Under the pieces are notes generated by a model, which made no database searches, was not told the origin of the DNA, and was given only the letters and a program-made list of their open reading frames with translations. A stretch of 64,000 bases of DNA from Candidatus Levyibacteriota bacterium (GTDB taxonomy: Bacteria; Patescibacteriota; Microgenomatia; Levybacterales; UBA12049), in NCBI GenBank assembly GCA_963722305.1, contig CAVRKE010000001.1:501549-565548 (forward strand), given 5' to 3'. A program made the translations under genes and the position numbers. Shown piece after piece: positions 3,464 through 47,796 of this stretch; position 1 is the stretch's first letter; each line of letters opens with the position of its first letter.

Positions 3464-3493
3464 TTGACATCTAATCTTCCCATTACTTATAAT
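3464..3493 (+). promoter_or_regulatory. Sigma70-type promoter (TTGACA-N18-TATAAT)
   Basis: TTGACA at 3464-3469 and TATAAT at 3488-3493. The ATG at 3504 lies 10 nt downstream of the -10 element. Confidence 0.5.
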
Positions 3494-3503
3494 CCGCTTT
3501 ATT

Positions 3504-4046
3504 ATGCCATCGATAGCAAGACGAGGACACAGAGTAGGGCCTGAACGAGGCGGAACAACAGATGTTGGTGGAGCACCCGCAACTGCTACGAAAGAAGCGG
3601 GTGGAACTATGGTTGTTCCGGACATTGAACATTCTATTTTTGGATCCACCCCGCAACAGTTTGCGGCAATGTTTGAGCAAGAATACAGCGAAATCTATTT
3701 TGAAGATATACCATTAACGCTTCGTTCTAAGGACGGCAGTAAAATAAAGCTTAAACCCGGAGTTTTTGTTACAACTACAGATTCTAAAGGAGAACCAATC
3801 CAACAATGTTTAATCGACCGGGGAATTATCATAAATATTCTTTTAATGGACGCTGTTCAACCAGACGGCACACAGATTGAAAGGAGTTTTCCTAATGTCG
3901 AGGGACGTAAAACATTATTAACACTTGCAGGGTTTTGTAGCGAAAAAGATCATATGCCTACTATTACTATCGGCAGTGCTGCTCATAACAGGCTGAAACA
4001 AGCTATACAGCAGTATCGCCAAGAAAGATCTGGTCAGCATCCATAA
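3504..4046 (+). CDS. Hypothetical protein (start uncertain; alternative ATG at 3609 preceded by GGTGGA)
   Basis: 180-aa ORF with no recognised motif. The first ~35 codons are GC-rich and could instead be a structured leader (stem CACCCGC...GCGGGTG overlaps an SD-like GGTGGA). Confidence 0.45.
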   Translation: MPSIARRGHRVGPERGGTTDVGGAPATATKEAGGTMVVPDIEHSIFGSTPQQFAAMFEQEYSEIYFEDIPLTLRSKDGSKIKLKPGVFVTTTDSKGEPIQQCLIDRGIIINILLMDAVQPDGTQIERSFPNVEGRKTLLTLAGFCSEKDHMPTITIGSAAHNRLKQAIQQYRQERSGQHP

Positions 4047-4060
4047 CATTTAAACATTAA

Positions 4061-5836
4061 TTACCTTCCAAACCAAGCATCTAGAATCTTTTTGGCGATC
4101 GGCGCGGCCACGTTACTGCCTTCTCCGCTGTTTTCCGAAAGGACCGTGATAACAATTTGCGGATTGTAAGCCGGCGCAAACAGCGTCACCCAGGCATGGG
4201 CTAAGGTATTTTCTCCACCGTTTTCCGCCGTGCCGGTTTTGCAGGCTAAAACCACCTGGCGCATATCGGCCGAGCCCGAAGAAGGGTCAACCCCTAGAAT
4301 ATTTTTCCCGTCGATGGGAAGCTTTGGATTCTTAACCATGTAATTAAACAAGGGCCAAGCCACACCCCCGGGACTGCAGGCTTCAACCATCCCCTCCTTA
4401 ATTAAATCCGCCGAATGGTTGTCTAAAAGATTGACGCTGAGAAGTTGGGAACCAAAATCCTTCATTAAGTGCGGCTTATACAAATTGCCGTTATTGGCAA
4501 TCGCCTGCGTCCAGGAATTAACCTGTAAAGGCGTGGTTAAGAGGTAACCCTGGCCAATTCCGTAGTGATAGGTATCCCCCAAGTACCATTGTTCGCCGAT
4601 ATTTTTGAGTTTCCATTCCGGCGTCGGCACTAATCCCGGTGCTTCTCCCGGCAAATCAATCCCCAAGTCTTCCCCCAACCCGAATTTCTTGGCCATTGCC
4701 GAAACTTTATCAACCCCCACTTTTTCCGCCAGTTGATAAAAGAAAATATCGTTGGAACGCTTGATGCCTTTGACAATGTTGACCATGCCGTCGGTTCCAC
4801 CGTAACCGGTGTAATACCAGTTGGAAAAAGAAAATGCACCGACCGTCAAAACGCCGGTATCTTCGATTTGCCAGTTTTCGTCAATGATTTTATCAGCCAG
4901 GCCCGCCGAAGCGACTATTAATTTAAAGGTTGAACCCGGTGGATAGACTCCTGAAATTGCCCGATTTAAAAGCGGCTGGTTTTGCGAATCGGAAAGAATA
5001 TCCGATAAGCTTAAATATGAACTGGCAGTCGAGATTTTATAATCCTGTCGCATCGTAAACAGGTTAGGGTCAAACGAAGGCTTGGAAACCATAGCCAGTA
5101 TTTCACCGTTAGGAGTTGAAACTATGGCCGCGCCCTTTTTGACGTCTTTCATGGCTGTAAAGACCGCCTCCTGAAGCTTTGCATCTAAAGTCAAAACGAT
5201 ATCTTGTCCGGCAACCGGGTCATTCTGGCCAAGCACCCTGACCAAATTGCCCCTCGCATCAACTTCGAAAAGCTCCTTCCCGTCGGTCCCTTTTAATAAA
5301 GACTCGTATTCCTGCTCGATTCCGGATTGTCCGACTAAATCTGATGGCGAGTATCCGGCGTATTGAGGATCCGACAGTTGCTCTTTGGAAATCTGGCCGA
5401 TATAGCCCAAAACGTGGGCGAAGGCTTCTTTGTACGGATAGCTTCTTAAAGAATCCACTTCCAAATTATTTTTGCCCGCAGCAATTGCCTGCAAAGCTTC
5501 ATCCTGATTTAAAATTACCGTTTTACCGTTAACAATTTCCCTTACTCCGGGCGCGTTAAAAACTAAAGGCGTACCGTTTCGGTCAAAAATTATTCCTCTT
5601 GGCGCATGGATGGTAACGGTTTTGGTGCGGTTACTGTCCGAAAGGTAGCGGTAATAATAACCTTCCAAGACCTGCAGAAAAAATAAGCGGAAAAAAAGAA
5701 TTGAAAATAACACCAGCAAAGCCAAAGGCAGCAAATAATTCCTGTTGGAATGCCCACCACCCTCGTAATCCCATTTTCTTCTTTTGTGGTCGCCCTTAGT
5801 AATATAATCGCCAAAAGCGATACCCGGTTTATTCAT
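4061..5836 (-). CDS. mrdA: Penicillin-binding protein 2 (elongation transpeptidase)
   Basis: N-terminal TM segment. Transpeptidase motifs STFK (PGSTFKL), SxN (RSNDIFF) and KTGT (CKTGTAE). It lies downstream of mreC-mreD. Confidence 0.85.
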   Translation of the reverse strand: MNKPGIAFGDYITKGDHKRRKWDYEGGGHSNRNYLLPLALLVLFSILFFRLFFLQVLEGYYYRYLSDSNRTKTVTIHAPRGIIFDRNGTPLVFNAPGVREIVNGKTVILNQDEALQAIAAGKNNLEVDSLRSYPYKEAFAHVLGYIGQISKEQLSDPQYAGYSPSDLVGQSGIEQEYESLLKGTDGKELFEVDARGNLVRVLGQNDPVAGQDIVLTLDAKLQEAVFTAMKDVKKGAAIVSTPNGEILAMVSKPSFDPNLFTMRQDYKISTASSYLSLSDILSDSQNQPLLNRAISGVYPPGSTFKLIVASAGLADKIIDENWQIEDTGVLTVGAFSFSNWYYTGYGGTDGMVNIVKGIKRSNDIFFYQLAEKVGVDKVSAMAKKFGLGEDLGIDLPGEAPGLVPTPEWKLKNIGEQWYLGDTYHYGIGQGYLLTTPLQVNSWTQAIANNGNLYKPHLMKDFGSQLLSVNLLDNHSADLIKEGMVEACSPGGVAWPLFNYMVKNPKLPIDGKNILGVDPSSGSADMRQVVLACKTGTAENGGENTLAHAWVTLFAPAYNPQIVITVLSENSGEGSNVAAPIAKKILDAWFGR

Positions 5837-5853
5837 AAATGTTGTTGTACTCC

Positions 5854-7163: not shown

Positions 7164-7348
7164 GAAACCATTTTAGCCTTTTTGAAAAAAGAAGACAAGC
7201 TTTTGCATACTAGGTTGACTAGAATTATGCGAATAATTTTGATATCTATTTATGTTCATAATATGAGTAATACTTTATTTTTGATGGCTATGTTTATTTA
7301 CATTAATTGTCAAAATATGGGCTTTGACTCGCCTGCTATAATAGCGCT

Positions 7349-8191
7349 ATGGCAAAAAAATCTGTTACGGAGGTTTTAAAATATTTTCAGTTTTCCGATA
7401 AAAATAAAGTTCTAAAAAAACTGCAGACAATTATTGCCGGCGGAAAAAATAATTTGCATTTACTTTTTGATTTTGACCGGACCTTAACTGTTGGTAAAAA
7501 CAACACCGGTGAAGACTTTACTTCGTGGAATATCTTAACAAAACTTTTGCCTCCTAAGGCTTTTGCCAAACAGTACAAACTTTATCAAAAATATCGACCA
7601 ATAGAGGCATCGGGCAAATTAAGTGCCAAAGATGCAACAAGTTGGGCCAATCAGGTGTTGAAAATTATTGTTGAAAACCAGGTCAATTTGTTGGAAATGG
7701 AAAAAGACTTTTTGCAAAACACCAGCATTAGATCTCATGCTAAAAACATTTTTGATGCTTGTAATATTCTCGGAATTCCCATTGTAATTGTCTCGGCCGG
7801 AATAAAAAATGTTATTGATATTTGGTCAAAAATATTTCAGGTATCCCCTGCTTTAGTTTTAGCTGTCAAGCTAATCGCTGACACAAACGGAAAAATTATC
7901 GACTGGGACAAAAATATTATCCATGTAGGAAATAAAGGAGAACAAGGAAACGAGGAGTTGGATAAAATCAAAAATCAAAGACCGAACATTATTGCCGTTG
8001 GGGACGCCATTGAAGACGCGGATATGGTTAAGGACGATGAAAATGTCCTGCGGATAAGAATTAACGACCCAAGGATAGATGAGAAATTAAGTGAAGCAGA
8101 ACGTCTGAAGAAAACTTTTGCCAAGTTTGATTTAATGATTGACTCCGGCACTCTGGAGCCGGTTTTGAAGATTTTGGAATTATTGGAATAA
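7349..8191 (+). CDS. HAD-superfamily hydrolase, pyrimidine 5'-nucleotidase (UMPH-1/cN-III)-like
   Basis: HAD motif I FDFDRTLT, motif II VSAG, motif IV GDAIEDADM. The large cap between motifs I and II resembles the cN-III family. An extended -10 element TGcTATAAT at 7334-7342 lies 6 nt before the ATG. Confidence 0.6.
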   Translation: MAKKSVTEVLKYFQFSDKNKVLKKLQTIIAGGKNNLHLLFDFDRTLTVGKNNTGEDFTSWNILTKLLPPKAFAKQYKLYQKYRPIEASGKLSAKDATSWANQVLKIIVENQVNLLEMEKDFLQNTSIRSHAKNIFDACNILGIPIVIVSAGIKNVIDIWSKIFQVSPALVLAVKLIADTNGKIIDWDKNIIHVGNKGEQGNEELDKIKNQRPNIIAVGDAIEDADMVKDDENVLRIRINDPRIDEKLSEAERLKKTFAKFDLMIDSGTLEPVLKILELLE

Positions 8192-10384
8192 ACTATTTGA
8201 ACCAAAAATCTCTTTTATAATTTCTGCCTTTAATTTTGATGTAAGTCTTCTCCTCCTTGTTGGTTTACTCTTTGGATTTCCAAGCTCAGATATTGCCTTA
8301 CGTTTCATTTCTAGTCTTTTTTTCATCGGCATCCCCTGCAACCTAATTATTTGCTTAATAATTGAGTCACGGAGAATTGATGCCATCATGTTGGGATCAT
8401 CCGACTCGGGTAAAACTTCATTTACAATTCCTATATCTAATCCATGTTGTTCTGCTGCGGTAGACTTCATCGAAGGCATTAGTTCTTTAACTTGTTCTGC
8501 TGTAGGATTGGAAACCCTTTTTATTATTGCAGTCTGATTTCTAGGCTCAGCTACAAATATTTTGCTTTTTTTAGGCGCCCCTATAAATTCTCCGAAAGGC
8601 AATATTCCAATCATTCCGCCGCTACCGCCAACACCCCAAATATATCCTATTCCTACCCATTTATGACTATTGACTGCTTCGGTTGATTCGGCAATACTTC
8701 TTGGTTGTCCTTTTCTTTCCGCTTCTATTGTCGGATTGGCTCCTAAAGTATCAATTAACGATACCAACGGCCATTTAAATCTGTCGGCAACTTTTAACAA
8801 CCGAATTATCCGTTGGTAATCTTCCGGCTGTGGACTGGCAGGAATTTTTACTATTTCAAAGCCTCCAGGTTTTTCCGGATTGGGGATTCTTTGGTAAGAA
8901 GGCATGTTGCCGATCATTAACACTGGCTGCGGGCCAATCTTAACAATTGAGGCCACAATTGCCGGATAACGTAAGATTGTGGTTTCATAAGAAGCACCAC
9001 CGTCTTCCGGATAAATTTCGGTGTGCTCAATGTGCCCCTGGTAAAGATTGACAACGTCATTCGGATTGGGAAACATTCTGGTAATCAGTGTTTGCATATC
9101 CGGTCTTTGTGAGTTTCTGACTAGCTCGTCGTATTCCCGAAGCAACCTATCCGCCTCCGGCTCATCTGCAGGAATTTCCGGTTTTGCATCTCTAGGTTGT
9201 TCATAGAACACCCTATCAGGAGAGATAAATCCTTCCAGTTTGAAAGCATCGGCTTTGGTCTCCTCTCCTTCAGTTGGACGAAAATCAGGTTTATTTTCGT
9301 AGGTCAATCTTTGGTGGCTCGGTTTAGTTATTCTGACAAACCTTTGCAAAAAATTTAAAAGCTCTTCTTTGGTTTTGAAAACCAAATCAATTTCCCGGGG
9401 GGTTAAAGCTTGCGCTTCAACACTCTGCTCCCAACCTTCAACAGGTACTTTTGTATAAAATTCCGTTAAGTGTTTACCCGAAAAACCAAAATCATTACCT
9501 TCCAAAGCAACAATAATATCTCCAAGCGGTCCAATACTTGCCGATTCTCCGCCAAATTCCGGACCGATTAGAGCGGTTATATAAGCCCTATCTTTGGCTT
9601 GCTCTTTAAAATCGTGTACCTCCATCACTTGTTTTGGTAATTGAACTAAAGCCACGGTACCTTCATCTTGTCTTGCTCCCGCGGAGGCTAAAAAGCAAAC
9701 CAATGGACGTTCGTGTCTGCCAAGAAGTCTATCCCTAAGATTTCTGCGGCGTGCCAATTCACTAGCTCTTTTGAATTTTTCTCCCGCAACCTGTCCGTTA
9801 GAGCCCCTTTGGAAATCATAATATTTTACATACGCAACTACTTCTACCCCACCCAAATTAGCGTGTCCATAGCATGCTGATTCAGGTTTACCGGTTTTTT
9901 TCTCTTCTTCTCTAAGTCGATCAAAATATCCACGGACCCTTGAAGGAAGATGCGGCTCCACGCCGGCCGGAATATTAGCTTCAACTCTTGTCTCAGCAGA
10001 ACGCTTTAGTCCCATAATGTCCTTTTTTACTCTCATCCAACGGTCAAGTTCATCAAGATGGATATTTCTTACAAGCCAATCTGTGATTTCGACTACTCTA
10101 TCGACAACTTCCTGGCCGTTAAGTTTTGGCCTTGACTCTAACATTGTCTTTGGAAAAGTTACGTTTGGTCTCGCTGGAGTTTCCAGGGGAACATTTCCGG
10201 GCATAATTGATATTTCCGGCCCGGCTTCGGTTCGAGTAAGGCGTACTGTAGTCAATGTCCCATCCGGATTCCGAAGAAGTGCCCTGACTCGGGTAATTTT
10301 GTTAGGGTCAAAATCGGGATGTTCGGCCCTTAGCGTTGACAATATCCATTTACTTGGTTTATTTGGGCCTTGTTCTCTCGCCAT
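8180..10384 (-). CDS. Fused carboxyltransferase, AccD-like (beta) plus AccA-like (alpha) domains, with a ~190-aa unknown N-terminal extension
   Basis: The beta part PLVCFLASAGARQDEG...ITALIGPEFGGESASIGPLGDIIVALEGNDFGFSG aligns with E. coli AccD PLICFSASGGARMQE...LTDPTMGGVSASFAMLGD..IGFAG. The alpha part SQRPD...AIVASIVKIGPQPVLMIG...PEDYQRIIRLLKVADRFKWPLVSLIDTLGANPTIEAERKGQPRSIAES...GVGGSGGMIG aligns with AccA. Confidence 0.75.
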   Translation of the reverse strand: MAREQGPNKPSKWILSTLRAEHPDFDPNKITRVRALLRNPDGTLTTVRLTRTEAGPEISIMPGNVPLETPARPNVTFPKTMLESRPKLNGQEVVDRVVEITDWLVRNIHLDELDRWMRVKKDIMGLKRSAETRVEANIPAGVEPHLPSRVRGYFDRLREEEKKTGKPESACYGHANLGGVEVVAYVKYYDFQRGSNGQVAGEKFKRASELARRRNLRDRLLGRHERPLVCFLASAGARQDEGTVALVQLPKQVMEVHDFKEQAKDRAYITALIGPEFGGESASIGPLGDIIVALEGNDFGFSGKHLTEFYTKVPVEGWEQSVEAQALTPREIDLVFKTKEELLNFLQRFVRITKPSHQRLTYENKPDFRPTEGEETKADAFKLEGFISPDRVFYEQPRDAKPEIPADEPEADRLLREYDELVRNSQRPDMQTLITRMFPNPNDVVNLYQGHIEHTEIYPEDGGASYETTILRYPAIVASIVKIGPQPVLMIGNMPSYQRIPNPEKPGGFEIVKIPASPQPEDYQRIIRLLKVADRFKWPLVSLIDTLGANPTIEAERKGQPRSIAESTEAVNSHKWVGIGYIWGVGGSGGMIGILPFGEFIGAPKKSKIFVAEPRNQTAIIKRVSNPTAEQVKELMPSMKSTAAEQHGLDIGIVNEVLPESDDPNMMASILRDSIIKQIIRLQGMPMKKRLEMKRKAISELGNPKSKPTRRRRLTSKLKAEIIKEIFGSNSLFQ

Positions 10385-10392
10385 AAGGCAGA

Positions 10393-10421
10393 ATTATAGT
10401 CGCGAAATCCTGTAGTGTCAA
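10393..10421 (-). promoter_or_regulatory. Sigma70-type promoter (TTGACA-N17-TATAAT) for the carboxyltransferase gene
   Basis: On the minus strand, TTGACA at 10421-10416 and TATAAT at 10398-10393. The ATG at 10384 lies 8 nt downstream. Confidence 0.55.
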
Positions 10422-15384: not shown

Positions 15385-15942
15385 TTATCTTGGTCTTGAA
15401 CTAATTTTAATCCTGCGTAATGTCCCGTCGGGCATTAATCGTGCTAAAAATCTTCTCTTATTAAAACCCCACGCTTCTCCAACTAGTCTTCCTTGGGCTT
15501 CCCAGTTATGTCTAATCATCCCTTCTCTTTCTAATCTTTTGTCTTCAAGATAGCTCTCCCACGATTTGGCTAATTCTAGATTACTCGCCAACACCACGAA
15601 ACCTTGTCTACTACCCGCAGTGCCGGTCACAGTGGTAATATCTGTAAACTTGTGAACAGCGTCAAGTACTCCCCGTATGAACGCTGCTTCTGGCGTTTGA
15701 CCGCTACGATCAGGTGCCGGATCAATCTCAGAAGCTAGTCCTTCGAGCTCAACAATGGCGGGAAACACTTCTGACTCACTTCTGACCACAATACTTCCTG
15801 AAGAAAGTCCTTCGAGGAATTGTGCAACATTAGCTTCGTGAAGTATCCCTCCCGTCCCGACTTGAGCATCTTGCCCGCCAGCTTCTCTGGCATCTGACAC
15901 TGCACCATGATTTACTTGTCTACCTAATTCTCCGTTATTCAT
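15385..15942 (-). CDS. Hypothetical protein
   Basis: 185-aa ORF with its own TTGACT-N17-TAAAGT promoter (15981-15953), 10 nt before the ATG. No recognised motif. Confidence 0.5.
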   Translation of the reverse strand: MNNGELGRQVNHGAVSDAREAGGQDAQVGTGGILHEANVAQFLEGLSSGSIVVRSESEVFPAIVELEGLASEIDPAPDRSGQTPEAAFIRGVLDAVHKFTDITTVTGTAGSRQGFVVLASNLELAKSWESYLEDKRLEREGMIRHNWEAQGRLVGEAWGFNKRRFLARLMPDGTLRRIKISSRPR

Positions 15943-15994
15943 TGGAGCATAAACTTTACCACTATAAGATGATTAAGTCAAGCGAAATCCTTAC

Positions 15995-17093
15995 GGTACA
16001 TTCTAGCTCGAAGTGCAACGATTTGAGGTTTTTGTATTCTGCATGATTTCTCCTAAAACTTCAAGTGGTATTTTCCAATCCAAACATTTTCTGGGCGTAT
16101 TATTCAGTTCCCATTCAATTAAAGCAACGTCTCTTTCGGTAATTAGATCCATGCTTATGCCTTTAGGAATAAAACGCCTGATTCTTCCATTCATATTTTC
16201 AACCGTTCCTTTTTCCCAGGAGTGATATGCATGACAGAAATATACAGACATGTCTAAGCTCTCCGTAATTTGTTTATGTTTGGTATTTTCAGCTCCATTG
16301 TCAGCAGTCAGAGTTTTTCTGATTTTGTCAGGAAAACGACTCATTCTAGCAAACAGTTTCTTAGTTTTTTCATCTGCTGTTTTAGCAGCTAGCTTTGACA
16401 TAACAGTAAGCCTTAGTTTTCTTTCAACCGTTACTGACAGGGCAGTCTTGTCAGTTTGGCGGCCTATCACATTATCTGTCTCCCAATGGCCAAGTTGTAA
16501 TCTTGTGTCAATCGATTTGGGTCTACTATCAATCGAAATAGCTTCAGGAATACGGCTATCTCTATTAACCCTTCTTCCCAGCTTTTTCATTCTTTTCTTG
16601 CGTTTTACTGTTAGATATTGCCAGAGCTTAAATTGCTTGTTCTGTGGTTTGTAGATTGCCTGATAAATAGTTTCATGGACAATTGAAAGATCGGGATGAT
16701 CTTTTGACAATCTTCCGGCAATTGTTTCAGGAGACCACTGTTTCTCTATTAGTTTCTTTTTAACATAAGAGTAGACCTCCGGTCCTTTCCAGGATGCTTG
16801 AGAGCGTTGAATAGCTGCTCTCTTATCAGCTTTTTGTTGTGCACGGCAGGGAATATATACGGCTGAAGTTTTCTCCAATCCCTTGGTATATGTTCTGTTT
16901 CTTTTGAGTTCACGAGACAGAGTGCCTTTGTTTCGTCCTAATTTATCTGCAATATCTCCCAGACTTAGTCCTGCATGCTTAAGCGCATAAAGCTCTTCCC
17001 GCTCTACAAGAGTTAAATGATTATACATAGCGCAACACCTCCTTTCGGTAATTGATTTTACCTCAAGTGTTGCACTTCGTTTTAGAACCTACC
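15995..17093 (-). mobile_element. IS30-family insertion sequence (1099 bp)
   Basis: Terminal IRs GGTACATTCTAGCTCGAAGTGCAAC (15995-) and rc GGTAGGTTCTAAAACGAAGTGCAAC (-17093). A 3-bp direct repeat TAC lies at 15992-15994 and 17094-17096. The element sits between the def genes and fmt. Confidence 0.8.
16003..17028 (-). CDS. IS30-family transposase
   Basis: 341 aa. N-terminal HTH (LTLVEREELYALKHAGLSLGDIADKLGRNKGTLSRELKRN) and a DDE core (HWETDNV.., TADNGAEN.., WEKGTVENMNG). Confidence 0.9.
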   Translation of the reverse strand: MYNHLTLVEREELYALKHAGLSLGDIADKLGRNKGTLSRELKRNRTYTKGLEKTSAVYIPCRAQQKADKRAAIQRSQASWKGPEVYSYVKKKLIEKQWSPETIAGRLSKDHPDLSIVHETIYQAIYKPQNKQFKLWQYLTVKRKKRMKKLGRRVNRDSRIPEAISIDSRPKSIDTRLQLGHWETDNVIGRQTDKTALSVTVERKLRLTVMSKLAAKTADEKTKKLFARMSRFPDKIRKTLTADNGAENTKHKQITESLDMSVYFCHAYHSWEKGTVENMNGRIRRFIPKGISMDLITERDVALIEWELNNTPRKCLDWKIPLEVLGEIMQNTKTSNRCTSS

Positions 17094-17137
17094 TACCTCT
17101 TTATACTAAATTCTAAATCCACTATACTAAATACGGT

Positions 17138-17983
17138 ATGAAAGCAGTCTTTTTTGGCTCATCAAGATATATCGTCCCCGTTTTGGAAATGATTTATAAT
17201 AATTTTGACCTGCCTTTGGTTGTTACTACCGAACAAAACCGCGTGGACCCCATTCCCTTCTATTGCGCGTCCAAAAAGATTAACTTTCTTAAAGTTAGAA
17301 AATCTGCCGACATGATTTCCAATTATGAAATCGGGCAAACCATGGCCAACATTGGCATCGTTGCCGACTTCGGCGTTTTGGTTCCCGATTCCCTGTTGAA
17401 TGTTTTTCCCTATGGAATTGTGAATATTCACCCATCCCTACTGCCAAAATACCGGGGTCCAACACCTGTGCAAAGCGCCATTTTAAACGGAGACACGGAA
17501 ACCGGCGTTACCATCATTAAGCTTGACAAATATCTCGACCACGGACCGGTCGTCGCCCAAGTCAAGGAAGAAATAAAAGAAAATGATACTGCCAAATCTT
17601 TGTATGAAAGGCTTTTTAAAATCGGCGGGGAGCTTTTAATAAGGACTCTTAGCCGCTTTGAAAATGCCGAGTCTCTGATGATACCGCAAAACCATGAAAA
17701 CGCCACTTTTACCAAACCGCTGACTAAAGACGACGGTTTTGTCGAACTGACAAGCGTCGTCGGCGGAAAAAGTTTTTTCGAAAGAATGGTTCGGGCTTAT
17801 TATCCCTGGCCGGGAGTTTGGACTAAAGCGCTGATTAATGGCCAAATGCTGTTGATTAAATTCTTGCCGGAGAAAAAAATACAGGTTGAGGGCGGAAATG
17901 AAATGGGCTATAAAGACTTTTTGAATGGCTACGCGGATAAAGCGGAGAAAAATTTGTTGGAGTTTTTGAAGAGAGAACTTTAA
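17138..17983 (+). CDS. fmt: Methionyl-tRNA formyltransferase
   Basis: The segment HPSLLPKYRGPTPVQSAILNGDTETGVTIIKL is followed by a C-terminal Formyl_trans_C-like region. The def genes lie nearby. Confidence 0.85.
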   Translation: MKAVFFGSSRYIVPVLEMIYNNFDLPLVVTTEQNRVDPIPFYCASKKINFLKVRKSADMISNYEIGQTMANIGIVADFGVLVPDSLLNVFPYGIVNIHPSLLPKYRGPTPVQSAILNGDTETGVTIIKLDKYLDHGPVVAQVKEEIKENDTAKSLYERLFKIGGELLIRTLSRFENAESLMIPQNHENATFTKPLTKDDGFVELTSVVGGKSFFERMVRAYYPWPGVWTKALINGQMLLIKFLPEKKIQVEGGNEMGYKDFLNGYADKAEKNLLEFLKREL

Positions 17984-18188: not shown

Positions 18189-18422
18189 TTAAGCTGCGAC
18201 AACCGGAGGAACTTCAACTTTTACTGCTGCCTGGGGTTTGGCTGCAGCTCTGATTGTTCTTTGGCATTTGGTGCAAAGCCTGACTCTTTTGGCCACACCA
18301 CCAACGATAATCCGAGCGCTATGAAGGTTCGGTTTAAAAATTCTTCTGGTGCGGTTTTTGGCGTGGGAAACATTGTGTCCGTACATTACTCCCTTGCCGC
18401 AATTAAAACAAACTAAGGCCAT
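18189..18422 (-). CDS. rpmB: 50S ribosomal protein L28
   Basis: [19 protein letters not shown] is the signature of L28. A C4 Zn-ribbon variant is present (CFNCGK...CTKC). Confidence 0.9.
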
Positions 18423-18450
18423 AATCTTTGTATTATAACTAAAATGTGCG

Positions 18451-18520
18451 GAATTTTCAATTCGAAATTTTAAATTTAAAATTATATTCTTAAAAATTGA
18501 TTGAAAATTAGAAATTAAAA
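18451..18520. repeat. AT-rich palindromic intergenic repeat, compact copy 3
   Basis: GAATTTTCAATTCGAAATTTTAAATTT...AAAAATTGATTGAAAATTAGAAATTAAAAAC is related to the arms of 5854..5954. It overlaps the TTGAAA-N17-TATAAT promoter (18501-18529) of the S2P gene. Confidence 0.55.
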
Positions 18521-18535
18521 ACTTATAATTGCCTA

Positions 18536-19183
18536 ATGGACTTAATCGGTATCATCATTATTCTTCCAATATTAATATACAGCGCAATTTTACATGAGAT
18601 TATGCATGGCTTAGTTGCCGAACGCTTAGGCGATCCAACAGCCCGACTTATGGGTAGAATTACCCTTAATCCAATACCACATATCGACCCTTTTATGAGC
18701 ATACTTCTCCCTTTAATCCTATCTCTATCTCCAACTCATGTAATTATTGGTGGCGCGAAGCCTGTTCCTGTTGATCCATTTAACTTCCGCGAACCAAAGA
18801 AGGATATGGCCATAGTCTCTTTAGCCGGACCAGGAACAAACTTTTTGATTGCAATTGTTTTCGGAATTATTTGCCGAGTGGTCTTCCCAGGATTGACTTT
18901 AGACGGGGTATTAAACAGCGGAATATTAGGCGCTATTTTAGGAACAATTGTTTATATAAATATTATCTTGGCCATTTTTAACCTAATTCCCATTCCCCTG
19001 CTTGACGGTTCCAAAATCTTCGCGCTGGTGTTGCCGGACAGAGAAGCGGCAATGTATATGTCCATCGGCAGTTTTGGAATTTTGATAATTTTCTTCCTGC
19101 TACTTTTCCCTATCGGCGGATTTTCCCTGGGGAGTTTAATGTTTAACCTCCTGACCTTTGCGCAACATTTACTGGGGCTTTAA
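18536..19183 (+). CDS. Site-2 protease family (peptidase M50) membrane metalloprotease
   Basis: HExxH motif (HEIMHGLVA) in a TM helix, plus the second motif [13 protein letters not shown]. Confidence 0.8.
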
Positions 19184-24763: not shown

Positions 24764-24771
24764 ATGACGTT

Positions 24772-35738: not shown

Positions 35739-35739
35739 T

Positions 35740-36639: not shown

Positions 36640-36684
36640 GCCTCAATTTGACAATTTTTTACCTCAGTAGTATTATCCGCAAGT

Positions 36685-36942
36685 ATGCCATGCCTACATG
36701 AATTGGGTTTAGTACGAAGAATTAAAAATACAGGCACACATATCGCACGATCGATTGACAGATTTGAACTGAAGGTTGAAGGGCTTAGTTCAAGGCAAAA
36801 AAGACAAATTTATTTTGTTATAGTAGCATTTATGTTAGCTACTGTAGGTTCCATTGGCGCAGTTGCAGGTAATGACTTAGGCGCTGCGATGCCTTTCTCC
36901 GGAGCTGCCGCATCGATATTTGGTGCAGCCATGAACTCCTAA
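36685..36942 (+). CDS. Small hypothetical membrane protein (85 aa)
   Basis: A TTGACA-N17-TATTAT promoter (36648-36676) lies 8 nt before the ATG. Gly/Ala-rich C-terminal TM segment. Confidence 0.45.
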   Translation: MPCLHELGLVRRIKNTGTHIARSIDRFELKVEGLSSRQKRQIYFVIVAFMLATVGSIGAVAGNDLGAAMPFSGAAASIFGAAMNS

Positions 36943-36989
36943 CTCGGCCTATTGACAACCAACCACCTCAGCATTAAAATCCGCTCAAT

Positions 36990-37844
36990 ATGATAAGAGA
37001 ATTTGGAACATTTCGACCTCTGTCTCCCAGCCTAATAGGTGATCCACAATCACCGGGACAAGCTAGTCCTACTAAAGATTCTGATGGCCGCTTAGCTCCG
37101 CAGGAGCGCCGTATTAAACTGCTTGCTGCTCTTTGCGAAAAAGGACTGTTTAAAGCGGTCGCTGCCTTGGAAAAAGAACAACCGACGAATGATCTTAAAT
37201 ATCGTTCCTGGGAATTAGTCAGGCACGGTAGAGCGGCAGAAGTGGTTGGAACAGTTTTAGGCCCGGACGGAAAACCAATACGTTACAACGGTTTTGAACC
37301 GTATTTTCTCGGTCTTCCGGCAGAGAAAATTGTCAAGCGGGAAATCGAATTAGGCCATCATCTTGCAGCTGAACTTAAGTTGGAACATCCAAAGGGCAGA
37401 ACAATAGAACTAAATCAACAGGAACGGGAAGTTATAAAAGCTTTACGCGGTGAGGAAATATCCCATTCCCACATTATTCAGGTATTAAAAGACCTTGATT
37501 GCGTTTTTCAAGTTGTTCATAATAGGGCAAAAGGCGGTTTAATTTGGGAAGGCATCCGGTTCCGGGACCACACGCATGACATTGTTGAATCAAGCCAACC
37601 TTACGAACCAGTCGTTAAAAATACGGTTGTTCATGTAGAAAACGCGGAAGACAGAAACGCTCTTATCTTACTGGGTGAAATCGGCATTATAGGCCATCCA
37701 GCACTTAGAGAAATCGTTGAGGGTATTCCTTTTAGATTTGAAGAAGAACCAAAACCTGTTATAGTCGTAGACGAGGCAACACATCGAAGGCTTAACGCCG
37801 CGGTGCATACTGGTGAAAAAGGACCGCCTGATGAACTTGCCTAG
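36990..37844 (+). CDS. Hypothetical protein (284 aa)
   Basis: A TTGACA-N17-TAAAAT promoter (36952-36980) lies 9 nt before the ATG. No recognised motif. Confidence 0.55.
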   Translation: MIREFGTFRPLSPSLIGDPQSPGQASPTKDSDGRLAPQERRIKLLAALCEKGLFKAVAALEKEQPTNDLKYRSWELVRHGRAAEVVGTVLGPDGKPIRYNGFEPYFLGLPAEKIVKREIELGHHLAAELKLEHPKGRTIELNQQEREVIKALRGEEISHSHIIQVLKDLDCVFQVVHNRAKGGLIWEGIRFRDHTHDIVESSQPYEPVVKNTVVHVENAEDRNALILLGEIGIIGHPALREIVEGIPFRFEEEPKPVIVVDEATHRRLNAAVHTGEKGPPDELA

Positions 37845-37908
37845 AATCCCTTTCCGTTCGGTTTGACAATAAACCGCCAACACAGTAAAATCCCCACATT
37901 ACTAAATT

Positions 37909-40089
37909 ATGAGCGTAGAGCAGCACAGACGCACCAACAGAGAGACTCTTGCCGAGGCTTTTTCGCTTGAAAAACAAGCCGCGGGCGCAATAGCGGGGAG
38001 ATTACATTTAATACCGCTACATGAAAGACAAGAAACGGAAACTGTTAAGCTGACTTTTGCATCATTCGGAGTAGTAGGCGCATGCGGCCAAACCGGCCGG
38101 CTTTATATCGAGAGGACTGCTCTTGGCTCCCCCACTCTTCCCATTACTGCAGTTGATTTGGTAGAGCCTACGAAAAGAGGAATAGAATTCCCCGACAGCG
38201 TTAAATTTTCTAGCGATTTAGCTTCAATTTTGCAAAGAAAAGACAGACCCGAAGCTTTTATTCTTGCGACCACTAATCCCATTGATAAACTACTTGAAAC
38301 TTTTAGAGATAACCTTGACGACAGACATATCACTTTGATTCTTCCTCAAAATGGAGTTGACGTTGTACCAAAAGCTCAAGAAATATTAAAAGGTAAAAAC
38401 GTAACTTTAATAAGAGCAAGCTTATTTACACCGGTTGATACTGAGCCGGATGGAAAAATTAAATATCCGGAGGACAAATTAAGAATAGGGCTTTCTTTAG
38501 TCAGGCCGGAAGGAGATATTGCCGATCCCGAAAAAGAGAAAGAACTTCAAAAGGCGGTAGAAACGTTTAGACGAGGAGGTTTTGACGCTAAAATTTTTGA
38601 GAACTATGTCAGCATGGAATGGACAAAGTTAGTTTTGAATGCGGTTGGCATAACAGGAGGTATTGTCGGCATTTCACCAAAAGAAGTTTACAATGACCAC
38701 GCCCTGTATCTACTGGAAACGCAGGCGCTGCACGATAGATTAAGAATTTTGGAAGCAGCCGGAATTAAATTAGAACATATTCCCTGGGGCGGAGCCGCAC
38801 TTTTACCTACATATGATTCTCTCCCTGGACTAATAAGAAAAAGTCATTTGGCGCAATTCCTTTATGGCCAGAAAGTGATTGCCGGCAGAGGGAATAAGCC
38901 TTCATCGGTTGGAATCAATATTCAAAAAGGAACCCCAACTGAGGGAATTACTTATCTTGAACCATTTGTCAAACTTGGAGAAACGGTTGGACTGCGATCA
39001 ATTGTCGATGAAGCGATGATTGAAATCATTCAAGGAAATTATACATTTATAACTCGTCGCAAAAACGACGTTGATACTCAAGAAAGAAAAATTGATTTGG
39101 CAGATTTTAGCCTCGAAGAGAGAAGAACGCTTTTGTTTGAAACTATTAGAAAACTAAGCCAAAAACCGCCAACCCGCCTGGACCGACTTGAAGGCAGAAT
39201 ATTTGCCGAAGGAGCGAAAAGATTTCTTCGTTACAGGATTATTGATCCACGCAACTACAGAGAGCGAACAGCTGAAGTTTTGCATCCAAAAAATGCTGAA
39301 GAAAAACCAGGTGAGGTGGTTGAAGGATTAAATCATGGAGACATGTCTGACTCTATTCACGGAATGGAATTAAATTTCACGATAGATGATATTGCCCATG
39401 CCTATGGCATGGATACTTTTTGGCATTACGATCGAACAAGAGGAAAAAAATATACCAGACTTTATGCTTGGGTAGAAGCTAAAGTGACAGCGGCAACCGG
39501 TATGCGAACCTACCACATCTTAAGGGAAAAAGATTTTGAATATTACCGAACCCACCGCGGAGCTATAGAAGGAAAAGCTCCTGAAGAATATAGCGGCCCA
39601 TCCTACAGAAAAATCAGGGAAAGACTTAAAAAAGAAGGCGGAATTTTTCTAATTGCTCCAGAGGCAACCAGAACTTTAACCGGCGAGCTAAATAGAGCTC
39701 AACCTGCAGGACTATTTTTAGAAACAAAGGACTTCAAGGAACGGGGCGTTTATCTTCCGGTAGGACTTGTCCCGACTTCTATCAAAGTCCCTTATCCCGA
39801 GAGAAGAAGTCTCGCCCAAAAAGCTAAACGCTTTTTGGCTAAAACAGAAATTAGAGTAGGAAAGCCTGTAACCTACGCTGAAATTATCCAAGATATGACA
39901 ATTGTCAATGAAGGCATAAAAGCTGTAAATAACCAAAGAGGAGAAAATGAGCAACTCGAATTAATGACCATAAGCGACATGATGATGCTTTATATCGCTA
40001 GGGTTCTTCCTCCACAGTATTGGGGATACTATAAAGAATACGTTCAATTCATGCCAAAAAATAATGGCAACGCTCCCCTAGCCACCTAA
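37909..40089 (+). CDS. Fusion protein: ketopantoate-reductase (ApbA/PanE)-like N-terminal half plus PlsC-type acyltransferase-like C-terminal half
   Basis: The N-terminal half has a Rossmann motif VVGACGQTG and MEWTKLVLNAVG (the W.KL..N motif of PanE). The C-terminal half has NHGDMSD (H-x4-D) and IAPEATRT (an FPEGTR-like motif). A TTGACA-N17-TAAAAT promoter lies at 37863-37891. Confidence 0.5.
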   Translation: MSVEQHRRTNRETLAEAFSLEKQAAGAIAGRLHLIPLHERQETETVKLTFASFGVVGACGQTGRLYIERTALGSPTLPITAVDLVEPTKRGIEFPDSVKFSSDLASILQRKDRPEAFILATTNPIDKLLETFRDNLDDRHITLILPQNGVDVVPKAQEILKGKNVTLIRASLFTPVDTEPDGKIKYPEDKLRIGLSLVRPEGDIADPEKEKELQKAVETFRRGGFDAKIFENYVSMEWTKLVLNAVGITGGIVGISPKEVYNDHALYLLETQALHDRLRILEAAGIKLEHIPWGGAALLPTYDSLPGLIRKSHLAQFLYGQKVIAGRGNKPSSVGINIQKGTPTEGITYLEPFVKLGETVGLRSIVDEAMIEIIQGNYTFITRRKNDVDTQERKIDLADFSLEERRTLLFETIRKLSQKPPTRLDRLEGRIFAEGAKRFLRYRIIDPRNYRERTAEVLHPKNAEEKPGEVVEGLNHGDMSDSIHGMELNFTIDDIAHAYGMDTFWHYDRTRGKKYTRLYAWVEAKVTAATGMRTYHILREKDFEYYRTHRGAIEGKAPEEYSGPSYRKIRERLKKEGGIFLIAPEATRTLTGELNRAQPAGLFLETKDFKERGVYLPVGLVPTSIKVPYPERRSLAQKAKRFLAKTEIRVGKPVTYAEIIQDMTIVNEGIKAVNNQRGENEQLELMTISDMMMLYIARVLPPQYWGYYKEYVQFMPKNNGNAPLAT

Positions 40090-40128
40090 CCCTTGACGGA
40101 AAAATAAATATGAATTAATATCCACATC

Positions 40129-40254
40129 ATGTCAATTGAAAGAAAACATTTAAACAGACTTGAAGCTTGGAAAAAAGGCGAACCATATCGTAGAGCTGTT
40201 GATCTAACGCGTAGCGATGGCTACAATCCATCCATTCCCCATCCCCACAGCTAA
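40129..40254 (+). CDS. Small hypothetical protein (41 aa)
   Basis: MSIERKHLNRLEAWKKGEPYRRAVDLTRSDGYNPSIPHPHS. A TTGACG-N17-TAATAT promoter (40093-40121) lies 7 nt before the ATG. Confidence 0.3.
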   Translation: MSIERKHLNRLEAWKKGEPYRRAVDLTRSDGYNPSIPHPHS

Positions 40255-43494: not shown

Positions 43495-44385
43495 CTAAAC
43501 CTTTAAAGTCTTAACCTCTGCAACTTGTCTTAGTAGCATTTCAAACATTTTTCCCTGATTGTTTCTCTGATTATATCGCCAAGCATATTCGTTGACATAA
43601 CTTTGGAGATATTTCTTTGAAACAACTCTATAAACTCCCGTAATTCCTCTTTTTAACTGAGACCATACCCCCTCAATAGTATTATTGTGAATAAATCCTC
43701 TTACATATTCTCCGCTTGAATGATTAACTTTGTCATGGTCGTAGTATCCAAAGTCATACAGGTTTTTATACGAAGCAAGTTCATCTGTCATGACATGGGC
43801 TTTAGGACTGACATTTTGTTTTATCTGGTTTATCAGCGTCCATTTTCCAGTATTGGGAATATGTTTTAAGTATGCCTTGCCACCCCTTTCAACTGCTCCC
43901 CAAACTACTTCCTTAGGTATTTCGTTGAAGTTTGGTTTTGTAGCTCTATTCTTACCCTTACCACCGATATATGTTTCGTCTATTTCAACAATCCCGCTTA
44001 AAAGTCCACCTTCCGTTTCTGCCATTAACATTCTGATTTGTTTAAACATTCTCCACGCCGTCTTATATGTTACCCCTAACATTCTCTCCAATTGTTTGGC
44101 CGATGTTCCGGATCTAGTTGTAACCATTAAATACATTGCAAAAAACCAAAGATCAAGTGGAGTACTGGTTTTTTCAAAGATAGTACCGGCCAGTGGATAG
44201 ATCTGAAACCCACAATACTTACAAGCATATGAGGTTCTATTGGTTACGGGATAGAAGACTGAAAGACTTTTACATTTAGAACATTCCATCTCATCTGGGA
44301 ATCTTAAGCGTTTAATAGCTTCCAGGCACTGTAAATGTGTACCGTATTTTCGCTTAAATTGTCTGAGGCTAAACTTCTTATTCAT
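43495..44385 (-). CDS. IS1595-family (ISXO2-like) transposase, a second, different element
   Basis: Zn-ribbon CSKCKS...CKYCG. DDE-type residues in VEIDETYIGG, VMTDELASY and NNTIEGVWSQLKR. The element ends could not be defined with confidence. Confidence 0.8.
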   Translation of the reverse strand: MNKKFSLRQFKRKYGTHLQCLEAIKRLRFPDEMECSKCKSLSVFYPVTNRTSYACKYCGFQIYPLAGTIFEKTSTPLDLWFFAMYLMVTTRSGTSAKQLERMLGVTYKTAWRMFKQIRMLMAETEGGLLSGIVEIDETYIGGKGKNRATKPNFNEIPKEVVWGAVERGGKAYLKHIPNTGKWTLINQIKQNVSPKAHVMTDELASYKNLYDFGYYDHDKVNHSSGEYVRGFIHNNTIEGVWSQLKRGITGVYRVVSKKYLQSYVNEYAWRYNQRNNQGKMFEMLLRQVAEVKTLKV

Positions 44386-44443
44386 AGCCTCATTATACAG
44401 TATTATTTACTTGTTGTCAAGGGATAAGTACCCAAACTAACTC

Positions 44444-45963: not shown

Positions 45964-45968
45964 GTTGG

Positions 45969-46442
45969 CTATAAATTAAAAGTTAGCTGCTTTGAAGTCC
46001 GGGTTACAAAAACATCGTTTTGATCCCATTGTGTATCAGAATCAATATAACGGGTTGTCAGCCATACTCCGCCACGGTCGCGAATGAGTTCAAAAACTGC
46101 CGGTAAATGAGGTGGATTAGGTAAGTTACGAGGGTTTGGTAATGGATACGGATCATCGATTGGCTCCATAACTATTACATACCGCTTTCCGATTTCTAAC
46201 TGTTGCATATTCCCTTTTGCGGCTTCTATTGCCAAAAAAATGCCTGCTTCGGGAGAAAGTCTATTTTCTGGTTTTCCCCAAATTTGCTCCGCTTTTGAAG
46301 CGTCACTAATCATAAAACTTAACCCTGTAGGCATTTCAAAAGGCGGCATTAGTTCAATCATTGTTCTTGCCGCCCCGGCAACATTGAGCCCTCGAGTAGA
46401 ATCTAATAAGTTCCCTACAGCTGTATTTCTTTCCGGCAACAT
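45969..46442 (-). CDS. Hypothetical protein (157 aa)
   Basis: A TTGACA-N17-TATATT promoter (46479-46451) lies 8 nt before the ATG. No recognised motif. Confidence 0.5.
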   Translation of the reverse strand: MLPERNTAVGNLLDSTRGLNVAGAARTMIELMPPFEMPTGLSFMISDASKAEQIWGKPENRLSPEAGIFLAIEAAKGNMQQLEIGKRYVIVMEPIDDPYPLPNPRNLPNPPHLPAVFELIRDRGGVWLTTRYIDSDTQWDQNDVFVTRTSKQLTFNL

Positions 46443-46556
46443 GTTCTTGGAATATACAGTTGGATATCCTTTTTGTCAACAACGATTTAGACTGTTCACA
46501 TTTTACCCTAGGCGCTACGTGGGGGTGATTCTTGTTGGCTAAAGAGGGTTTTGCAG

Positions 46557-47507
46557 TTAATTTGAGAATATCTGTTTAAGCTGTTTATCTATTTCCGGAA
46601 TTGCTGCTAGTCCTTCGATTAATGTTTCAGTAGGCTCTTCGTACTGAATTGCTGCAACTGGTTGCCAGTGACTATCTCCATCATGCTGTAAGCCAAAATA
46701 AAAGAAGCCAACTTGATTTTCTAATGGCATCATAATTGATGCTGTCCAAAATTCCGGGTCTTCTACAGAACCTCTATCTACTTGCAGTTCTTGCCCTGTT
46801 TTCAGATTAATGTCCGCACTCTCAACGTAAGCATGCGGATTAAGAATATTTATTCTACCCCGTAATCTACTAATTGCGGATAGCAAAGGAGCATGTCCTT
46901 CTGCCCTTGTCTTATTTTCTTCTGCCTCCCTGTCTGTAACAGCTTCGAAAGCGTCAATTCCATATAACTTTAAAAAGCTTACTTCAAAACTTTCAACACC
47001 AAAGTCAGTTACTCTTGTTTCATCACCGTTTCTCTCCATATAAAAAGTGTGAACGTCGCCGCGGGTGGGAGGAACGTAAGGCGGCAGTGGAGCAAGTAAT
47101 CTATTAAAATCTCTGCCGATTGCATATGCTGCCCCTTGAGCTCTCAGCCCGATTGAAACTTCGGCGTTAATCGGCAAGTGCCTATGTGCAAAAGGCTCCA
47201 ATTGACCTGACTGTTCATTGATTTGAAAACCAAAAGTAGCATCAATAATCTGCTCTCCTTCGCTAAAAGTCAACGCCATTGACCAAGAATCGGGAGCTAT
47301 TTTGGTACCACCTTGGTATTTTAACGTTGCCCCATCTCTTAAACTGAACTCCCCGCTTGCTACATTATTTGTGTCAGCAAATATTCTGCTTCTTAAAGCA
47401 ACAATTTGCCCGGAAAACTCTGCCTCTCTACCTTTTGCTTCTGAGTCTTGAACCGGTACTTGTCTTACTCCCGTGTCTGGCGACATATTCCCGAAAATAT
47501 ACACCAT
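46557..47507 (-). CDS. Hypothetical protein with two homologous tandem domains (start may be the ATG at 47486)
   Basis: Two ~90-aa segments share the pattern (A/S)..(S/R)(R/L)(I/R)...L..G..L......W. A TTGACA-N17-TATATT promoter (47524-47496) lies 9 nt before the internal ATG at 47486, which favours the shorter form. Confidence 0.5.
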   Translation of the reverse strand: MVYIFGNMSPDTGVRQVPVQDSEAKGREAEFSGQIVALRSRIFADTNNVASGEFSLRDGATLKYQGGTKIAPDSWSMALTFSEGEQIIDATFGFQINEQSGQLEPFAHRHLPINAEVSIGLRAQGAAYAIGRDFNRLLAPLPPYVPPTRGDVHTFYMERNGDETRVTDFGVESFEVSFLKLYGIDAFEAVTDREAEENKTRAEGHAPLLSAISRLRGRINILNPHAYVESADINLKTGQELQVDRGSVEDPEFWTASIMMPLENQVGFFYFGLQHDGDSHWQPVAAIQYEEPTETLIEGLAAIPEIDKQLKQIFSN

Positions 47508-47796
47508 TATGGTTTACCTGTCAAATTTGCCTCTTGATACATGCTGCGCTTTCCTTCGATTTCACTCAGGACTATAGTGCGCCCAGTCCTAAAGGATTTC
47601 GTTTCACTCAATATCGCGAACTATCTATAGACTATAGATATTTTGGGTCTTGATGCATGTTGCTTCGCTCAATACTTTCGCTCGGCCCAGTATCGCGTGG
47701 TAATTCTAAAATTGCCACTTGACAATTATGTTACACTTTGTTACTTTATCGTTGATTAATTATCATATTGATGACTATATGTATAGTCACAAGGTT

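Follow-up and report, generated by a model that had tools for sequence, protein, structure and literature searches.

Translation of leaderless mRNAs, which lack a 5′ untranslated region (UTR), is established in Mycobacterium, Deinococcus and Escherichia coli. In GeneMarkS-2 group C genomes a Pribnow box lies about 6–8 nt from the gene start, as in Mycobacterium tuberculosis, and 25–50% of operons are leaderless; 90% of Actinobacteria genomes and 97% of Deinococcus-Thermus genomes fall into this group (PMC6028130). The group C genomes that use the standard genetic code are almost all high-GC, and the low-GC cases are code-4 Mycoplasma (bioRxiv 10.1101/2022.07.25.500264). The stretch described here, a 64,000-nt window of contig CAVRKE010000001.1 from a Candidatus Levyibacteriota bacterium (about 42% GC), was read on both strands for promoter sites, open reading frames (ORFs) and tRNAs. 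An earlier note on this DNA had listed 19 near-consensus promoters whose −10 hexamers end 6–10 nt before an ATG or a tRNA +1, and all 19 were found again on re-reading. Their geometry, its excess over chance and its conservation in relatives point to leaderless expression of operon first genes from abutting sigma-70-type promoters, a reading to which we assign a probability of about 0.8.

Abutting promoters in the window and in related loci

An unbiased scan of both strands for TTGnnn-N16–18-TAnnnT with at least 9 of 12 consensus matches returned 53 sites in the window; it recovered the earlier-listed promoters and added four that had not been listed. The null model came from shuffling the window 100 times with its dinucleotides preserved. 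At 10/12 matches or more there were 23 promoters, compared with 6.2 ± 2.2 in the shuffles, and those followed at 5–11 nt by an ATG that opens an ORF of at least 40 aa numbered 15, compared with 0.07. At 11/12 matches or better the corresponding values were 16 versus 0.75 and 13 versus 0.01. The shuffled-sequence control, which the earlier note had named as one possible refutation of the pattern, did not reproduce it.

A start-centred test was run with promoters ignored: ORFs of at least 100 aa were picked greedily without overlap, and the first ATG of each counted as its start. A −10 hexamer ended 5–11 nt before the start (the gap) in 18 of the 40 operon-leading genes of the window, and 15 of these 18 had a −35 as well. 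Control positions shifted by +60, −60 or −120 nt gave 1–2 of 40 and a 30-nt shift gave 7 of 40; the Fisher p for the window enrichment is 5e-5. The 18 gaps measure 6 nt (six genes), 7 nt (one), 8 nt (four), 9 nt (four), 10 nt (two) and 11 nt (one). The same geometry was found before none of the eight operon-internal genes.

The window matches the sigma-70 housekeeping promoter, TTGACA and TATAAT separated by 17 ± 1 nt. Its listed −35 elements are TTGACA, TTGAAA, TTGACT, TTGACG, TTGATA, TTGCAT and TTGCTA with spacers of 16–18 nt, and the listed −10 elements are TATAAT, TACAAT, TAAAAT, TATACT, TATTAT, TAATAT, TATGAT, TATATT and TAAAGT, with 4–6 matches to TATAAT. Two sites had been entered as extended −10 promoters. 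Both are real matches, but the positions given for them mark the TG of TGnTATAAT, and the hexamers themselves occupy 7337–7342 (gap 6) and 30302–30307 (gap 8). The second of these has an additional −35, TTGAAA, at 30279, and the mreC site (ATG 7163) has a weak −35, TTGTCT, at 7198. The idea that the promoters are copies of one repeat was rejected, with a maximum pairwise identity outside the −10 hexamer of 52%. The sites are as follows; IS denotes an insertion sequence.

3464..3506, + strand: TTGACA-N18-TATAAT, gap 10, ATG 3504; 180-aa orphan, no Pfam match
7334..7351, + strand: extended −10 TGcTATAAT, gap 6, ATG 7349; HAD/UMPH-1-like hydrolase
17123..17140, + strand: TATACT, gap 9, ATG 17138; fmt (methionyl-tRNA formyltransferase), M1 conserved in 24 homologues
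18501..18538, + strand: TTGAAA-N17-TATAAT, gap 6, ATG 18536; M50 (S2P) protease
26751..26788, + strand: TTGAAA-N17-TACAAT, gap 6, ATG 26786; P-type cation ATPase
30279..30318, + strand: TTGAAA-N17-TATAAT with TG extension, gap 8, ATG 30316; 103-aa orphan
36648..36687, + strand: TTGACA-N17-TATTAT, gap 8, ATG 36685; 85-aa orphan
36952..36992, + strand: TTGACA-N17-TAAAAT, gap 9, ATG 36990; 284-aa orphan
40093..40131, + strand: TTGACG-N17-TAATAT, gap 7, ATG 40129; putative gene, ORF of only 41 aa
7161..7198, − strand: TTGTCT-N17-TAAAAT, gap 6, ATG 7163; mreC
10382..10421, − strand: TTGACA-N17-TATAAT, gap 8, ATG 10384; 734-aa carboxyltransferase (ACC-like)
15940..15981, − strand: TTGACT-N17-TAAAGT, gap 10, ATG 15942; 185-aa orphan
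20162..20203, − strand: TTGACT-N18-TATAAT, gap 9, ATG 20164; HTH_3 protein
23072..23109, − strand: TTGATA-N17-TACAAT, gap 6, ATG 23074; putative gene, ORF of only 49 aa, beside an IS copy
24464..24501, − strand: TTGCAT-N16-TATAAT, gap 7, ATG 24466; 417-aa orphan
24514..24800, − strand: TTGCTA-N17-TATAAT, 8 nt before +1 (24763) of the outer tRNA-Trp
26692..26732, − strand: TTGACA-N17-TATGAT, gap 9, ATG 26694; diacylglycerol-kinase-like protein
46440..46479, − strand: TTGACA-N17-TATATT, gap 8, ATG 46442; 157-aa orphan
47484..47524, − strand: TTGACA-N17-TATATT, gap 9, ATG 47486
18420..18460, − strand, not listed earlier: TTGAAA-N17-TATAAT (18460/18437), gap 9, ATG 18422; ribosomal protein L28 (rpmB)
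44383..44420, − strand, not listed earlier: TTGACA-N17-TATAAT (44420/44397), gap 6, ATG 44385; IS1595-family transposase
32204..32247, − strand, not listed earlier: TTGACA-N18-TACAAT (32247/32223), gap 11, ATG 32206; nucleotidyltransferase
48624..48666, − strand, not listed earlier: TTGACA-N18-TATGAT (48666/48642), gap 10, GTG 48626; 164-aa ORF

Two further sites of the window provide a contrast.

37863..37911, + strand: TTGACA-N17-TAAAAT, 17 nt to ATG 37909; short leader without a Shine-Dalgarno (SD) sequence
17026..17048, − strand: the only full SD of the window, AAGGAGGTG, with GGAGG at 17042–17038, 8 nt before ATG 17028; IS30-like transposase

The window encodes Fmt, MreB, MreC, PBP2, L28, L10, NusG, the M50 protease, the P-type ATPase, several IS elements and many orphans, and its ORFs run open under code 11, the standard genetic code with TGA as stop. 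Named Fmt homologues belong to Candidatus Levybacteria (Levyibacteriota) or the Patescibacteria group. A Fmt scan of species-representative genomes provided 80 loci for comparison, nearly all labelled Levybacteria, Microgenomates or Patescibacteria (1.19 Mb in total, 1061 ORFs of at least 100 aa, lineage GC range 31–46%). The best Fmt identity between the window and these loci is only about 60%. Judged by sequence comparison, the window comes from a member of the Levybacteria-group lineage of the candidate phyla radiation (CPR), a member not itself represented among the scanned species-representative genomes.

A TATAAT-like hexamer in the 80 loci forms a sharp peak starting at −12, where it is present in 13% of the 1061 genes compared with a level near 1% at each other position. 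With the hexamer at −12 the gap is 6 nt, and the canonical +7 start therefore falls on the A of the ATG. The −10 at a gap of 5–11 nt precedes 291 of 725 first genes (40%) compared with 47–125 of 725 (6–17%) in four shifted controls; the Fisher p against the −60 nt control (61/725) is 1e-47. A −35 partner is present in 148 of the 291 cases and in 3–21 of 725 control positions. The distribution of −10-to-ATG distances, proposed in the earlier note as a check, was computed over the window and the 80 loci and has its lineage mode at 6 nt (124 genes, followed by 50 at 7 nt, 34 at 8 nt, 31 at 9 nt, 21 at 10 nt and 22 at 11 nt). Among internal genes of the loci the geometry occurs in 68 of 273, 13 of them with a −35; these genes mostly overlap or abut the upstream stop, and the start-to-stop distance peaks at −4, −1 and +1 to +3. 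Enrichment was seen in 48 of the 50 loci that have at least eight first genes, with a median of 39% of first genes. A leaderless-rich genome has the geometry in at least about 25% of its transcription units, and the values here are 45% in the window and 40% in the loci.

Starting from promoters gave the same picture. The loci hold 469 strong promoters, and an ORF-opening ATG follows at 5–11 nt in 127 cases, at 0–4 nt in 4, at 12–20 nt in 33 and at 21–40 nt in 20. The E. coli sample is an uninformative control for this test, with 0 promoters of at least 10/12 within its 50 kb, but it served well as a control for the SD and −10 position profiles. An independent set of 71 low-GC metagenome contigs likewise accumulates −10 hexamers at −17 to −12.

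Orthologue conservation is the strongest comparative evidence in these sequences. The −10 of mreC lies at a gap of 5–11 nt in 29 of 34 orthologues that share 34–57% protein identity, and in most of those listed the promoter has the form CTTGTA-N17-TAAAAT-N6-ATG with a gap of exactly 6 nt. For rpmB the −10 ends 5–11 nt before the ATG in 42 of 71 orthologues. In a subset of the rpmB orthologues the −10 lies about 20 nt upstream with AGGA or GGAG between it and the ATG, which shows that SD-led short leaders occur in the lineage. An abutting −10 precedes fmt in 33 of 72 orthologues, and most of the others directly follow an upstream gene.

Several other upstream features were observed. A two-ORF element is present as an inverted duplicate (671–1808, + strand, and 21738–22875, − strand) with identical upstream sequences, and its first ORF has TAGAAT 6 nt before the ATG. 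Two IS1595-like genes, at 402 (+) and 30229 (−), have identical 5′ regions. Tandem AATTAGAAAT motifs occur upstream of PBP2, mreB and the M50 protease and in the 47.5–48.1 kb intergenic region, at the following positions.

5855–5878, − strand: tandem AATTAGAAAT motifs
11540–11570, − strand: tandem AATTAGAAAT motifs
18506–18515, + strand: tandem AATTAGAAAT motifs
48032–48048, − strand: tandem AATTAGAAAT motifs

With at most one mismatch, the motif has 25 matches versus 13 expected, and 25 was reached in 0 of 100 shuffles. In two of the loci (L069 and L080) fmt is preceded by repeats resembling AATTAGAAAT. These repeats may act as an operator common to cell-shape genes or as an alternative promoter element of such genes. 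A 3017-aa ORF (51623–60676, − strand) lies in a stretch of 48–49% GC, compared with about 42% elsewhere in the window.

Start codons and Shine-Dalgarno sites

The assigned start codons agree with independent signs of the protein N-termini. In 16 of the 19 cases the longest ORF has no start codon ahead of the listed ATG. M1 and the next residues of Fmt are conserved in 24 homologues; in most relatives the alignments of MreC, L28 and the M50 protease start no later than residue 8 and an ATG stands at the corresponding position; and the Pfam matches of L28 and the P-type ATPase begin at the N-terminus. The geometry also helps to choose between candidate starts, as the earlier note had proposed. 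ATG 32206 gives the nucleotidyltransferase its canonical N-terminus, MKKIRKVVIPAAGFGTR, whereas the longest-ORF start at 32284 places 26 extra residues ahead of the Pfam domain and is probably wrong. The −10 of the 47524/47501 promoter lies downstream of ATG 47507, which places that codon outside any transcript of this promoter and makes 47486 the probable start; no homologues of the gene were found among the 80 loci for comparison of the two. At GTG 48626 the alternative ATG, 48641, overlaps the −10 hexamer. One further site lies in the interior of the P-type ATPase gene (27036–27073, + strand), where TTGGCC-N17-TATATT ends 6 nt before the in-frame ATG 27071. This may specify an internal leaderless isoform or may be a chance match, since it reaches only 9/12, a level common in the shuffles.

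SD sequences were sought with the same script in the loci and in controls. SD 4-mers show no peak before the starts of the 80 loci: they precede 7% of first genes versus 8% in the control, which answers the SD frequency check named in the earlier note, and they are slightly enriched before internal genes (15% versus 9%). Run on 50 kb of E. coli, the script showed SD 4-mers clearly peaking at −14 to −9, and an SD peak also appeared in 45 unrelated high-GC contigs. Use of SD sites by the remaining genes, a trait of leaderless-rich genomes, was thus not found, although individual SD sites do exist. Weaker candidates in the window lie, for example, near 63392 and 45449. The earlier statement that almost every orphan gene has the promoter pattern was too broad, as about 45% of transcription units have it and some genes have SD sites. 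The gene behind the window's only full SD is an IS30-like transposase (HTH_38 and rve domains; 16003–17048, − strand), and its SD is consistent with the entry of a mobile element from a host that uses SD sites.

Neither the window nor any of the 80 Levybacteria loci contains a 16S rRNA gene. A 16S 3′ end was read in five related low-GC contigs, L098, L112, L147, L157 and L182, on which the tRNA insert family described below occurs. It is GGATCACCTCCTTTCT, which means that the anti-SD is intact on those contigs, and abutting promoters as well as SD-led genes are found on them. Anti-SD loss has been reported only in a Parcubacteria subgroup, and CPR S1 proteins are short, with 3–4 domains (PMC9297842).

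tRNA promoters and a nested tRNA-Trp

The 24800/24777 promoter ends 8 nt before AGGCCAG (24763), the 5′ half of an outer tRNA-Trp gene that extends from 24763 to 24514 on the − strand. Its 3′ half ends with CCA at 24514, and the two halves are separated by an insert of 176 nt, within which lies a second, different tRNA-Trp (24655–24583, − strand). Joining the halves anywhere in the anticodon loop yields a tRNA recognized by ARAGORN, and the CTC/CAAA junction gives the loop CUCCAAA, that of tRNA-Trp. On the intact sequence the outer tRNA was missed by ARAGORN, with and without its intron option, and by Rfam at gathering and E-value thresholds; its detection required masking of the inner tRNA or joining of the halves. 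Relatives with an uninterrupted tRNA-Trp share the promoter, ATTGCTAGATT...TTCCCAG-TATAAT-N8, and this shared promoter identifies the outer tRNA gene as the orthologue of their normal tRNA-Trp.

The insert begins with TCCCAG and ends with CTGGGA. The same insert interrupts the tRNA-Trp of one locus (L020, 9995–10244), a related one lies in a tRNA-Thr gene (L026, 14917–15155), and the tRNA-Thr of two others (L010, ~7324, and L041, ~12582) has the same 5′ insert sequence ahead of it. A metagenome scan with the insert motif gave 76 low-GC matches, 59 of which are followed by an inner tRNA (many of contigs L083–L202). The nested arrangement is thus found again in CPR contigs, and in the clearest cases the outer halves and the inner tRNA share an anticodon, namely Thr-UGU, Thr-CGU, Thr-GGU, Trp-CCA or Cys-GCA. 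On the five contigs with a 16S rRNA gene, tRNA-Cys follows the insert motif, and contig L109 has a 92-nt version of the insert without a tRNA. No Rfam family was found for the insert, and its ends do not fit group I rules. Published tRNA group I introns of Patescibacteria lie in Asn and Asp genes at position 35/36 and are described as 'divergent' in Thr; nested tRNAs are not mentioned (PMC13011429). The insert may represent a structured intron with a spare tRNA inside it, or else a selfish insertion that breaks up the resident tRNA and brings its own replacement.

Across 137 tRNAs of the window and loci L002–L081, −10 hexamers are concentrated 8–11 nt before +1 (for example before the tRNA genes at 12235–12306 of L081 and 11978–12049 of L072). 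Pre-tRNA 5′ leaders are probably only about 0–4 nt long, and these −10 positions fit leaders of 1–4 nt as well as a start at +1. Leaderless tRNAs of the Nanoarchaeum type, which do not depend on RNase P, are transcribed from the mature 5′ end; the 8–11-nt spacing seen here suits either that start or the 1–4-nt leaders. One promoter of the window has no ORF downstream of it. It is TTGACA-N18-TATACT (11/12; 25587–25611, − strand), it lies about 250 nt upstream of a tRNA-Thr/Tyr/Thr cluster, and its region has no Rfam match. It may drive a long leader of the tRNA operon or an unannotated small RNA.

Probable leaderless expression, its alternatives and known systems

Transcription by RNA polymerase begins some 7 nt beyond the −10 hexamer. 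With a gap of 6 nt, the placement of the sigma-70-type promoter would set the polymerase start at the A of the start codon, and with gaps of 7–11 nt the transcript would begin 1–4 nt before it. The resulting mRNAs would have neither a 5′ UTR nor an SD, and a ribosome carrying initiator tRNA would bind the AUG at the mRNA 5′ end. This leaderless mode would be the main expression route of operon first genes in this organism and in Candidatus Levybacteria, serving about 40–45% of transcription units. Genes further down an operon mostly overlap the stop codon before them or adjoin it, and SD-bearing short leaders occur in a minority of genes. We infer the position of the transcription start site (TSS) and the mode of ribosome recruitment from known sigma-70 start selection and from leaderless translation elsewhere. 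With the TSS placed from the −10 position, the leaderless reading of the earlier note agrees with promoter spacing, excess over chance, absent SD enrichment and conservation alike.

Several observations weigh against leaderless expression. The ideal 6-nt gap is found at only about one-third of the window sites, and at 8–10-nt gaps a purine is often available 1–3 nt before the ATG (for example at 3504, 17138 and 36990). Some window mRNAs with such gaps probably carry 1–3 extra 5′ nt, and in E. coli even short 5′ extensions lower leaderless translation. More than half of first genes have no detectable −10 at this distance, and for the others the transcription start is predicted from the −10 position. 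At 23074 and 40129 the ORFs have just 49 and 41 aa, too few for validation. A T at −1 before the ATG, which occurs in 55–57% of first genes versus a background of about 33% (window and loci L002–L081), was considered as evidence of a Y-R start-site motif and rejected because internal genes carry it too (48%).

Some of these points would be explained by very short leaders: gaps of 8–11 nt would leave 1–4 untranslated nt, with translation still dependent on the 5′ end and independent of an SD. We regard this as unlikely, though by no means far-fetched. It would account for the broad spread of gaps in the window, for the purines 1–3 nt before the ATG at several sites and for the tRNA −10s of the lineage, whose distance from +1 suggests starts 1–4 nt upstream of mature 5′ ends. 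It does not account for the wider-lineage mode of exactly 6 nt, which puts +7 on the A, or for the 6-nt gap kept in most listed mreC orthologues. TSS studies usually class UTRs of 5 nt or less as leaderless, and very short leaders would therefore refine leaderless expression and not contradict it. Ordinary leaders would follow if the promoters were real and the true start codons lay downstream, and this is very improbable. Most of the genes are orphans without a homologue to fix the N-terminus, and two of the ORFs are very short. Nevertheless, the ATGs that open their longest ORFs, the homologue or Pfam fit of Fmt, MreC, L28, the M50 protease and the P-type ATPase from their first residues, the roughly 200-fold excess over chance of ORF-opening ATGs at 5–11 nt, and the lack of an SD peak that could serve downstream starts all argue that the starts are correctly placed.

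The A/T-rich hexamer could in principle be a ribosome-binding or unstructured-leader signal of the non-SD type found in Bacteroidota (group B) and not a promoter at all. The genome is A/T-rich without an SD peak, and genes without a −10 have an A-rich upstream region from −10 to −2, both of which favour such a signal. However, the hexamer has a TTGACA partner at 17 ± 1 nt in most of the window cases and about half of those in the lineage, far above the shifted controls, and the same motif stands before tRNA genes, which are untranslated. In group B genomes the motif precedes internal genes too (PMC6028130); the geometry was found before no internal gene of the window and, as a much weaker signal than at first genes, before 68 of 273 in the lineage. 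A motif before first and internal genes alike, with no −35, is therefore not what these sequences contain, and a group B signal has hardly any probability. Chance pairing of motifs in an A/T-rich genome has next to none. GC is only about 42% and weak 9/12 matches arise about 29 times in the shuffles, but the dinucleotide shuffles, shifted positions and control genomes all lack the pattern, and the geometry is kept in orthologues.

Leaderless expression from abutting promoters is a known mechanism. The novelty here lies in the lineage, in its low GC and strong −35 hexamers, and in an almost complete lack of SD sites, internal genes included; a full-text literature search, which covered few subscription journals, found no report of a leaderless pattern for Patescibacteria or CPR. 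We propose tentatively, at somewhat less than even odds, that Levybacteria, and possibly wider Microgenomates or CPR, are the first low-GC, standard-code lineage that has largely abandoned SD-led initiation, with about 40–45% of units leaderless from strong −35/−10 pairs, internal genes translated by stop-start coupling, tRNA leaders of 0–4 nt and the anti-SD kept. If this is true, ribosome reduction in CPR (reduced ribosomes, short S1, few biogenesis factors) would be tied to 5′-end-dependent, possibly ancestral initiation. An uncultivated lineage that branches deeply and combines low GC with reduced ribosomes would join Mycoplasma and the high-GC Actinobacteria and Deinococcus in frequent leaderless expression, and this would bear on whether leaderless initiation is ancestral or was gained repeatedly during genome reduction. 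SD-tuned gene callers would misplace CPR starts, and the promoter-adjacent ATG or GTG would be the better guide (32206, 47486, 48626). The sites would also offer ready-made strong promoters and expression rules for future CPR genetics.

The closest likeness is to Actinobacteria and Deinococcus-Thermus (M. tuberculosis, M. smegmatis, C. glutamicum, S. coelicolor, D. deserti), in which a TANNNT box lies about 6–8 nt before first-gene starts with no SD in between. The −35 is a strong TTGACA here, whereas that of mycobacterial leaderless promoters is usually weak. The predicted leaderless fraction of 40–45% falls within the 25–50% of operons predicted or shown to be leaderless in group C. Unlike most group C genomes, the lineage has 31–46% GC and belongs to Patescibacteria, and in contrast to group C, whose remaining genes use SD sites, SD is nearly absent here even before internal genes. 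Code-4 group C Mycoplasma share the low GC and the reduced genomes, and 30–60% of their transcripts are predicted to be leaderless (bioRxiv 10.1101/2022.07.25.500264), but they belong to another phylum and use another genetic code than the code 11 found here. Bacteroidota of group B resemble the lineage in keeping the anti-SD (here in related contigs) while SD is rare in mRNAs; in their mRNAs, which have leaders, an A-rich motif stands before each gene, whereas the signal here is a promoter concentrated on first genes. Archaeal leaderless genes (Haloferax, Sulfolobus; group D) likewise have a fixed promoter-start distance and no 5′ UTR in many operons, but their TATA box and B recognition element (BRE) lie about 23–26 nt upstream and serve another polymerase, whereas the signal here is a bacterial −35/−10 pair.

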